Below the pieces are notes generated by a model that saw only the letters and a program-made list of their open reading frames with translations, had not been told where the DNA came from and did not search any database. Shown piece after piece: positions 8,412 through 9,548 of a stretch of 64,000 bases of DNA. Every line of letters starts with the position of its first letter. Position 1 is the stretch's first letter. Both the position numbers and the translations under genes were made by a program. This DNA comes from Escherichia phage vB_EcoM_112, in the sequence record NC_024125.2; one strand, written 5' to 3'.

Positions 8412-8450
8412 GATAGGGTAATAGTATCACTACCCTATCTAAAAGTAAAC
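8412..8450 (-). promoter_or_regulatory. early-type promoter with inverted repeat (promoter/stem-loop element), copy 1
   Basis: Minus strand: GTTTAC (-35), about 18 nt, TACTAT (-10); perfect inverted repeat gatagggta-atagtatcac-taccctatc on the spacer and -10. Confidence 0.55.
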
Positions 8451-8684
8451 TTATTTTTTACGAAAAATTGATTTATATTTATCAGCCCATTTCTCGATGA
8501 CTTTTTCTGGTCCATAGATAACAAAATAATCACCAAACTCTTCACCACCGAGTTGACCGAAATTATCTAATGCATCACGAAGAACTCCATGAGGCATTTC
8601 GCCCATTTTATCTTTCTTGCCAATGTAAATAAACTCAACTTTTACATCAGCAGCTTCAGCAATAAATTCTTGATACATTTTCAT
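8451..8684 (-). CDS. CTS-bearing internal-protein-like protein (77 aa)
   Basis: ATG at 8684 preceded by GGAG; N-terminus MKMYQEFIAEA; track ORF extends to 8702 through a non-ATG codon. Confidence 0.65.
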   Translation of the reverse strand: MKMYQEFIAEAADVKVEFIYIGKKDKMGEMPHGVLRDALDNFGQLGGEEFGDYFVIYGPEKVIEKWADKYKSIFRKK

Positions 8685-8711
8685 TTTATTCTCCAATTTC
8701 ACATTTGTTTT

Positions 8712-8750
8712 GATAGGGTAATAGTATCACTACTAAAACCCCGTGTAAAC
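8712..8750 (-). promoter_or_regulatory. early-type promoter with partial stem-loop, copy 2
   Basis: gatagggtaatagtatcactac...gtaaac; minus-strand -35 GTTTAC and -10 TACTAT retained, right stem arm degenerate. Confidence 0.5.
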
Positions 8751-8762
8751 AACTTTGTGAAA

Positions 8763-9020
8763 TTATTTTAAATCTTCTAATCGTTTCTTCATCTTAGAAC
8801 CGTTCTTAGCGATTTCTCCTGCATCAGAGCATAATGCTAAAAGTGCTTTAACTTTAGTTTGGTCTCCTTTAAAAGACGAAGGATCGACTGCAGCAGCAAG
8901 TTCTTTAATACGAGAGAAAAGACGCTCAGCTTCAGCTAAAGCCATTCCAAGCTTTACTTCCATACCGTGGGAAGATTCAGTGATAGTAGTTTTTGTAGCA
9001 AACTCTTTGAAAGTTTTCAT
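8763..9020 (-). CDS. internal-protein-like protein with CTS-like N-terminus (85 aa)
   Basis: N-terminus MKTFKEFATKTTITE; RBS AGGAAAA; own upstream promoter element. Confidence 0.6.
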   Translation of the reverse strand: MKTFKEFATKTTITESSHGMEVKLGMALAEAERLFSRIKELAAAVDPSSFKGDQTKVKALLALCSDAGEIAKNGSKMKKRLEDLK

Positions 9021-9041
9021 TTTATTTTCCTAATTAATTTT

Positions 9042-9080
9042 GATGAGGTAATAGTATCACTACCTCATCAGCATGTAAAC
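9042..9080 (-). promoter_or_regulatory. early-type promoter with inverted repeat, copy 3
   Basis: gatgaggta-atagtatcac-tacctcatc: stem retained by paired changes relative to copy 1 (GG to AG and CC to CT); -35 GTTTAC at 9075..9080. Confidence 0.55.
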
Positions 9081-9092
9081 AACTTTATGAAA

Positions 9093-9548
9093 TTATTTTA
9101 AATCGTCTGCCCAATCGAGTTTAAGAGGCTCTTTGTATTCACGGTCAAGTACAACCGGAATTTGTACATCACCGCTAAATGATAAGGGCCCAACATTATA
9201 AGACAATGTTATATGCGGTGTGTAATCATCAAAATCATGTGTAGCACCTAGTGCCCGCGCATACATGTGTCGACAGCGCAGATATTCAGAATCTAACACA
9301 AGTACAAGAGTCGATCCATCTTGTGTTTTCCATACTTCTAAATGTCCAGAAGAAGCTACTTCAAAACTTCCACTCGATGGAACATATGGAACATTTACTC
9401 TCGAATAACATATAGTCGAATGAATTTTTTCTCTAGGAACTGGATTAGGAACACGTAAAGAGCGCTGGAGTTCTTCCAGCGCGTCAAGTGTTAATTCTGA
9501 AAACTTAGCTGCTACATAAAGACCCGTTGAAAAGTCTTTAAATTCCAT
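9093..9548 (-). CDS. 57B: 2H phosphoesterase; T4 gp57B / Acb1 (anti-CBASS) homolog
   Basis: 151 aa; two H-x-T/S motifs (HSTICY, HITLSY) typical of 2H phosphoesterases; position between 57A and the internal-protein locus as in T4. Confidence 0.8.

Follow-up and report, generated by a model that had tools for sequence, protein, structure and literature searches.

The interval between genes 57B and tRNA.4 in Escherichia phage vB_EcoM_112 (NC_024125.2) is the Tequatrovirus IP1 (ipI) locus, present here with Ip5 and Ip6 (the T2/T6/PST-type configuration). All positions refer to the window, that is, the whole stretch of 64,000 nt that was analysed. In the reading we prefer, to which we give a probability of about 0.85, ip5 and ip6 are cassettes exchanged at repeated promoter/stem-loop modules, the cargo proteins are injected, and the inverted repeat within the modules is selected as a structure. 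The locus, the kind of element and both genes are already known and named; in the passages that deal with the subject, later papers credit the T-even IP1 locus, and the names Ip5 and Ip6, to Repoila et al. (1994) (PMC2839356, PMC4122927, PMC12373910). From the left to the right anchor the features are:

9093..9548, minus strand: 57B, Acb1 (anti-CBASS phosphodiesterase; Pfam PF23474 Acb1, E 2.6e-60), the conserved left anchor of the locus
9033..9108, minus strand: module copy 3, with AT-rich 5' segment, predicted -35 GTTTAC (9075-9080), 18-nt spacer, extended -10 TGaTACTAT (hexamer 9051-9056) and 5'UTR
8763..9020, minus strand: ip5 ('ipV'), 85 aa, phrog_3499, predicted leader MKTFKEFATKTTITE|S
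8703..8778, minus strand: module copy 2, junction-type, predicted promoter 8721-8750, with the 5' 30 bp in common with copy 3
8451..8684, minus strand: ip6 ('ipVI'), 77 aa, phrog_8111, predicted leader MKMYQEFIAE|A, minority allele class
8393..8450, minus strand: module copy 1, predicted promoter 8421-8450, hairpin 8410-8441, then SD GAGGAG
8207..8392, minus strand: tRNA.4, a 61-aa predicted membrane protein, phrog_1692, the conserved right anchor

The minus-strand gene order 1 (dNMP kinase)-57A-57B-ip5-ip6-tRNA.4-tRNA.3-tRNA.2, followed by the tRNA cluster and segB (6156-6821, about 1.6 kb from the locus), matches T4, T6 and GiZh from gene 1 to the tRNAs and places the 85-aa and 77-aa ORFs at the IP1 position. 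The 57B protein is 100% identical to 57B of these three phages. By megablast 874 phage records match 7400-9800, most of them Tequatrovirus, with vB_EcoM_G2540-3 on top (97.8%). An Rfam scan of 4900-9300 returned tRNAs only. The gene driven by module copy 1, tRNA.4, is a conserved membrane-protein gene and no internal protein.

The preliminary description placed three promoter/stem-loop modules before consecutive minus-strand genes, and all of their elements were recovered. The minus-strand GTTTAC-N18-TACTAT with its inverted repeat lies at 8421-8450, 8721-8750 and 9051-9080, and the promoter pattern recurs at 5013-5042, which makes four matches where 0.04 are expected; as TG precedes TACTAT, the -10 is an extended -10. 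There are three exact occurrences of the core GTAGTGATACTATTACC, where 0.13 would be expected even with three mismatches allowed. A repeat search returned a 39-nt family of three copies (8412-8450, 8712-8750 and 9042-9080) along with a 76-nt pair of 83% identity (8703-8778 and 9033-9108) extending into the 3' ends of ip5 and 57B. This pair accounts for the additional 30 bp described earlier for copies 2 and 3, and it is because the pair reaches their 3' ends that both genes end in DLK; the last 13 nt of 57B are part of the 30-bp segment in common with the ip5 3' end. The near-identical sequence that the modules have in common amounts to about 40-76 bp. It takes in the AT-rich 5' segment and the -35, the core with loop and -10, and the region from SD and ATG into the leader.

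The arms of copies 3 and 1 are 10 and 11 bp long and lie flush against the 10-nt loop GTGATACTAT, copy 3 (hairpin 9041-9070) with the arms TGATGAGGTA/TACCTCATCA and copy 1 with TAGATAGGGTA/TACCCTATCTA. Between copy 1 (GATAGGGTA/TACCCTATC) and copy 3 (GATGAGGTA/TACCTCATC) two pairs have changed, both fully compensated, hence the paired changes noted earlier are real. Copy 2 had been thought to have lost its right arm. The perfect arm is indeed gone (right on the plus strand, left on the coding strand), the left half ACGGGGTTTTAGTA being non-complementary to the right arm TACCCTATC, but the copy still folds as a composite three-part hairpin over 8705-8752 with an RNA MFE of -16.2 kcal/mol (z -2.83), and therefore the structure is not lost. 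The corresponding values are -17.4 kcal/mol (z -4.15) for copy 3 and -19.8 kcal/mol (z -3.55) for copy 1.

Both cargo ORFs have the capsid-targeting type of N-terminus first proposed for them, an N-terminal leader ending in L/I-x-E|, which is the prohead-protease motif of T4 gp21. The leader ends ITE|S in Ip5 and IAE|A in Ip6, as compared with ITE|A in the T4 IPI leader MKTFKEFTSTTTPVSTITE|A, where the Pfam mature domain begins at residue 20. In AF2 models of Ip5 (pLDDT 71) and Ip6 (pLDDT 82) the leaders are the only disordered parts, residues 1-12 and 1-10 respectively, while the mature parts are predicted as a two-helix hairpin and a small alpha/beta domain. A fold search with these predicted models gave a generic ferredoxin-like domain for Ip6 and a helical hairpin for Ip5, nothing informative, and PDB sequence searches with the two proteins gave chance-level matches only. 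Neither ORF matches a Pfam family, IPI_T4 (PF11634) included, whereas T4 IPI matches IPI_T4 with an E of 7e-54. In homologue searches both families proved very small, with 10 and 5 clusters, all of them from T-even phages, and therefore there are no remote relatives to help.

As for annotation, the ip5 ORF carries the label Ip5/ipV in the GenBank records of RB14, RB32, GiZh and PST, and Ip5/ipV and Ip6/ipVI annotations of the two ORFs are spread over the RB14, RB32, GiZh, PST and JK23 records. The UniRef name of the T2 and RB70 proteins is 'Ip5', and phrog_3499 and phrog_8111 are PHROG 'internal head/virion protein' families. The preliminary description underplayed that the locus and both genes were already named and annotated, and also that the stem-loop layout departs from that of canonical promoter-early stem-loop (PeSL) elements. 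Judging from the leaders, Ip5 and Ip6 are probably packaged and cleaved by the prohead protease; a literature search for virion proteomics of either protein found none.

The cargo had been put forward as candidate anti-restriction factors, and published work on related proteins agrees with this, packaging being presumed. Internal proteins have been described as diverse defence proteins with only the capsid-targeting sequence in common (Rao and Black 2010, PMC3012670), and the GmrSD enzyme inhibited is a different one for each of Ip1, Ip2 and Ip3 (Silas 2025, PMC12373910). The Ip6 homologue bas37_0260, one of two genes at the Bas37 locus, protects against McrBC, and its knockout is McrBC-sensitive; bas37_0261 (Ip5) is unmentioned in the same report (HIDEN-SEQ preprint, bioRxiv 10.1101/2025.11.20.689424). 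Through its homology to bas37_0260 the window Ip6 is a putative inhibitor of type IV restriction, and any targets given to Ip5 and to this Ip6 allele are likewise putative.

The comparison of the interval across T4-like phages, proposed earlier as a check, was carried out on 36 IMG/VR loci anchored on 57B together with T4, T6, GiZh and further GenBank records, in all 43 distinct intervals. Breakpoints fall inside the modules, and the locus deserves the term hypervariable: between the conserved flanks there are 0 to 5 ORFs, arranged in 21 architectures among the 43 intervals, over lengths from 79 to 1663 bp. The leader is present in 73 of the 79 ORFs, in keeping with an IP-type locus. The ORFs form 13 clusters, one of which is an overlapping-frame artefact inside ipI, leaving about 12 families. 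A query with the flanks only matched 723 phage records, with implied intervals of about 70, 370-460, 690-790 and 920-1125 bp.

We also compared contents in phages that have a 57B of 99-100% identity. Within this set the interval holds nothing (slur13), ipI (T4), ip6 (L034), Ip7 (L033), ip5+ip6 (this window, T6, GiZh and others), ip5+ipI (RB14), ipI+ip6 (AdolfPortmann), Ip9+Ip7 (BF15) or ip5+Ip9+Ip7 (RB32). A one-cassette interval, annotated IP5, is found in wV7. Matches to teqskov, AndreasVesalius and JK23 are split, but the cause is indels in the tRNA.1-tRNA.3 area and not a change of the IP interval.

The joints show exactly the junctions that cassette exchange at the repeats, as suggested earlier, predicts. 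In slur13 the empty site is a single hybrid module, composed of the 57B flank, a copy-2-type left half and a tRNA.4-type right half, and in L034 deletion of ip5 has left 57B fused to the copy-2 module. Module 1 of AndreasVesalius is a chimera of copy-2 left and copy-3 right, and in T4 and RB14 the module before tRNA.4 is a chimera of copy-2 left and copy-1 tail. The 5'UTR of Ip9 is of tRNA.4 type in RB32 and of ip6 type in BF15. All junctions examined fall inside modules, whose halves reassort cleanly according to one rule: the right arm and 5'UTR travel with the downstream gene, the -35 and left arm with the upstream gene. It follows that crossovers fall at one of three places, namely the loop/-10 core, the 30-bp 5' segment in common or the stretch from SD and ATG into the leader.

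The window itself is a mosaic of this kind. Its ip6 has a DNA identity of only 83-85% with the allele of T6 and GiZh (dS 0.38-0.50, omega about 0.3), while the neighbours of ip6 are about 97-99.5% identical (dS about 0.02-0.16), and the divergence switches at the module edges. From this sequence pattern we conclude that the window ip6 is a whole-cassette replacement, a cassette of deeper lineage bounded by modules. In the phage collection ip6 is dimorphic, with 46 records at 95% nt identity or more and 192 at 80-90%; ip5 is uniform, all 250 records lying at 95-99%. The bas37_0260 of Bas37, which is phage KarlGJung, sits at the orthologous position and belongs to the other ip6 allele class. The window Ip6 is 79% identical to it in aa sequence, and since the two have 16 differences in 77 residues, concentrated at 46-70, its specificity may differ as well; the window Ip5 is 100% identical to bas37_0261. 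It is possible, although we hold it for somewhat doubtful, that the two Ip6 allele classes differ in specificity, each suited to other type IV restriction enzymes.

We propose that each gene would be an autonomous cassette under a T4-type early promoter with extended -10. At the module patches, homologous recombination of the phage would remove or add cassettes and exchange them between relatives infecting the same cell, and hybrid modules would remain at the joints after exchange. The prohead protease would presumably remove the leader after ITE in Ip5 and after IAE in Ip6, and the two proteins would be packaged and then injected along with the DNA, so as to counter modification-dependent (type IV) restriction. 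The hairpin would most likely act in sense RNA reading through from upstream, where it would stabilise the upstream cistron at its 3' end or insulate it and would not be a terminator. The cassette's own mRNA would not contain the hairpin, as transcription is expected to begin within the right arm. A literature search for a transcription-start or 3'-end map of T4 found none.

Selection on the structure of the inverted repeat is suggested by its behaviour among related promoters. The same geometry enclosing the -10, with unrelated arms, occurs at 4676-4705 of the window before e.7 and at several non-IP genes in T4-like contigs. The promoter sample was biased, as loci were picked by 57B or by the pattern GTTTAC-N14-GTGATACTAT and many sequences are related; in this biased sample 93 of 237 distinct promoter-like sites fold at -8 kcal/mol or below, and the share is 73% before leader-type genes as against 34% for the others. 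When 150 distinct sites are aligned without gaps, 49.3% of the cells are paired in the flush register, compared with 43.1+-0.9 in shuffles. Stem covariation in the 150 sites is 0.258 versus 0.178+-0.011 in shuffles (none of 500 as high), with slid registers at 0.13-0.165, and the non-Watson-Crick positions of well-formed stems are G.U in 12 cases and A.C in 2; it should be noted that the covariation and these counts suggest more independent events than there were, because the sample is biased and the sites are related. The excess of G.U over A.C points to a sense-strand RNA hairpin. The sense strand also folds better than the antisense, part of the gain coming from G.U pairs due to the promoter-constrained GTG..TAT. 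We favour, at nearly even odds, a hairpin that forms in the RNA of read-through transcripts and does not terminate them.

The stem-loop could instead act in DNA, as a cruciform or a non-template hairpin with single-stranded -10, and serve for supercoiling tuning or for endonuclease VII-type entry for recombination. The loop coincides exactly with the extended -10 and the geometry is kept with unrelated arms; further, the crossovers map to the loop core, and one crossover has been mapped within a PeSL loop (Arbiol 2010, PMC2839356). A symmetric cruciform should, however, accept G.T and A.C equally, which is not what the 12 to 2 ratio shows, and stability with DNA parameters is modest, all three copies lying near -8 kcal/mol and copy 2 having a z of -1.7. 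The loop core is moreover the longest identical patch, by itself enough to explain crossovers there, so we consider a role in DNA unlikely.

A transcription terminator insulating each cassette, as in canonical PeSLs, is distinctly less probable still. The hairpin does lie 15-40 nt past the upstream stop codon, and RB49 PeSL stem-loops terminate transcription in reporter assays (PMC2839356). But no U-run follows any module arm, and a terminator scan of 7400-10000 came back empty, modules included, while the same scan called the true terminators at 5179-5202 and 5736-5759. There is also no late-promoter motif within the locus; as the nearest upstream is at 10146-10153, late expression of the locus would need read-through, and so would late synthesis of prohead-packaged proteins, which speaks against termination at the modules.

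In the non-terminating RNA reading that we favour, the element may be of dual use, a promoter in DNA and a selected hairpin in read-through sense RNA whose halves come from different cassettes. The left arm may move with the gene upstream of it and the right arm with the one downstream, so that shuffling breaks the hairpin and compensatory change rebuilds it. Further, we speculate that hairpins enclosing the -10 could be a distinct, widespread dual-use class in T-even early promoters, although the odds seem to us rather against it.

As to the exchange itself, one may ask whether the modules are alike only as strong T4 early promoters, with turnover by illegitimate recombination or by co-conversion started by SegB. 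T4 early promoters have a long common consensus, and the e.8 promoter at 5013-5042 has flanking sequence in common with the IP modules, yet borders no variable cassette; with segB about 1.6 kb away, homing could also move cassettes. The similarity does not stop at the promoter elements, however, but takes in 5'UTRs and the 3' ends of coding sequences, and illegitimate recombination would scatter junctions, whereas all those examined sit inside modules, including the empty site and the boundaries of the ip6 allele. We find this explanation very improbable. Least credible is that the palindrome serves as an operator to which a dimeric regulator of early transcription, from phage or host, would bind: dyad symmetry is centred on the -10, but the arm sequences differ wholly between sites with pairing retained, as is typical of nucleic-acid structure, and because of this covariation we reject the protein-operator reading.

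The practical value for the window is one of annotation, the 85-aa ORF being Ip5 and the 77-aa ORF being Ip6 of the rarer allele class, in a family now tied to McrBC inhibition. The locus, which adjoins Acb1 (anti-CBASS), is a textbook case of a lytic phage's swappable kit of presumably injected counter-defence proteins.

Among known systems the closest is the IP1 locus of T-even phages, with which the window agrees in position (57B to tRNA.4), in leader-bearing small genes, in the T4 early promoter plus stem-loop and in shuffling; nothing essential differs, and the window is an ip5+ip6 instance with the minority ip6 allele. The RB32 GenBank record mentions flanking direct repeats of 43 bp. 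PeSL-like sequences at two variable T-even IP loci were seen by Repoila (1994), as related in the accounts of Arbiol 2010 and Comeau 2014 (PMC2839356, PMC4122927), and the T-even elements are based on T4 early promoters and have weaker, AT-richer stem-loops (PMC2839356, PMC4122927).

The likeness to PeSLs drawn in the preliminary description stands for the recombination behaviour and fails for the layout. A canonical PeSL has a stem-loop just upstream of the promoter that terminates transcription (PMC4122927, PMC2839356), and PeSL recombination yields mini-circles and chimeric elements (PMC2839356, PMC4122927). Like the PeSL cassettes of RB49/phi1, PST and nt-1, the modules join a promoter (here predicted as GTTTAC-18-TACTAT preceded by TG, with AT-rich 5' segments) to a hairpin between small accessory genes in a plastic region, as the number of architectures illustrates. 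Recombination between neighbouring elements gives chimeric elements and indels in both, seen here as hybrid modules and the empty site, with crossovers in the loop, in the AT-rich part or between -10 and SD. The PeSL promoter is TTGACA, whereas here it is of T4-early type (GTTTAC), and in place of a G/C-rich, terminating stem upstream of the promoter we find an AT-richer stem within it, with arms flanking the extended -10 and no U-tract.

T4 Ip1 (IPI*), Ip2 and Ip3 have the same leader and presumed delivery by packaging and injection as Ip5 and Ip6, and Ip1 occupies the same locus, but there is no sequence or detectable fold relationship and no Pfam IPI_T4 match. The bas37_0260 gene of Bas37/KarlGJung is of the same Ip6 family at the orthologous position, in the other allele class. 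Integron gene-cassette arrays are alike in outline, in that small accessory genes between structured repeats are gained, lost and rearranged at a single site. Unlike integrons, the locus has no integrase and no attC/attI, each cassette has its own predicted promoter, and exchange would go by general homologous recombination, hence it is not a member of that family.

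Early-promoter motifs of genes unrelated to the internal proteins (IP) likewise carry an inverted repeat enclosing the -10, with arm sequences unrelated to those of the three IP modules, the promoter/stem-loop elements of the IP1 locus. Two such motifs lie in the window:

4676-4705, minus strand, non-IP early-promoter motif with an inverted repeat enclosing the -10
63864-63892, minus strand, the same

The arms before e.7 read ATAGGCTCAT/ATGAGCCTAT, and many further non-IP cases were found among the T4-like phage loci L040-L151, a sample biased toward loci with 57B or the promoter pattern. 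As these non-IP promoters show the hairpin with unrelated arms, the hairpin around the -10 is a general promoter architecture of T4-like phages and not specific to IP genes. The stem is absent at the e.8 promoter, despite flanks common to the IP modules (ttttcacaaaactGTTTAC ... TACTATacaactatcaactactga), and the promoter upstream of the Ip4 gene (ATTTAC-18-TAGTAT) has merely a short stem around the -10, TGTGA/TCACA.

5013-5042, minus strand, e.8 promoter
288-761, minus strand, Ip4, 157 aa, second classical IP locus, named from the RB14 annotation
856-1350, lysozyme e, neighbour of that locus

Ip4 begins MKTYQEFITEA... and matches Pfam DUF7412 and phrog_3155. Outside both classical loci, between the rnaC/tRNA-Arg area and e.8, lies a further ORF with an IP-like (capsid-targeting-type) leader, MKSYTQFLNEA|VLNEA|SS. 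It is part of a 557-bp unit bounded on both sides by a duplicated intrinsic terminator, all within 5170-5762:

5210-5683, minus strand, leader-bearing ORF, 157 aa
5170-5205 and 5727-5762, two terminator copies (36 nt, 94% identical)
5722-5729, T4 late-promoter motif TATAAATA

T4 has no counterpart of this ORF, which is present in more than 400 phage records, labelled hypothetical (family phrog_2280), and the leader is retained in the homologous products. The product may be a packaged protein that has so far escaped recognition. L021, a T4-like contig of more distant relationship, contains a leader-bearing ORF of 88 aa, MKTYKEFIAESKWS, about 1.9 kb downstream of 57B and far past tRNA.4, which again hints that IP-type genes also occur beyond the two classical loci.

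At 8207-9548 the IP cassettes, putatively directed against type IV restriction, immediately adjoin 57B (Acb1, anti-CBASS), and because of this direct adjacency we regard the region as a counter-defence island. In phage TadeuszReichstein (L160, MZ501106; 1213-1668), a close relative, two ORFs, the first of 180 bp and the second of 207 bp, are annotated at the 57B position ahead of ip6; the split annotation suggests that Acb1 is disrupted or rearranged there. Compared with T6, GiZh and Bas37, ip6 (8451-8684) falls into two allele classes, with 46 versus 192 records, and the 16 amino-acid differences between them are concentrated at residues 46-70, a part of the C-terminal half of the predicted alpha/beta domain.
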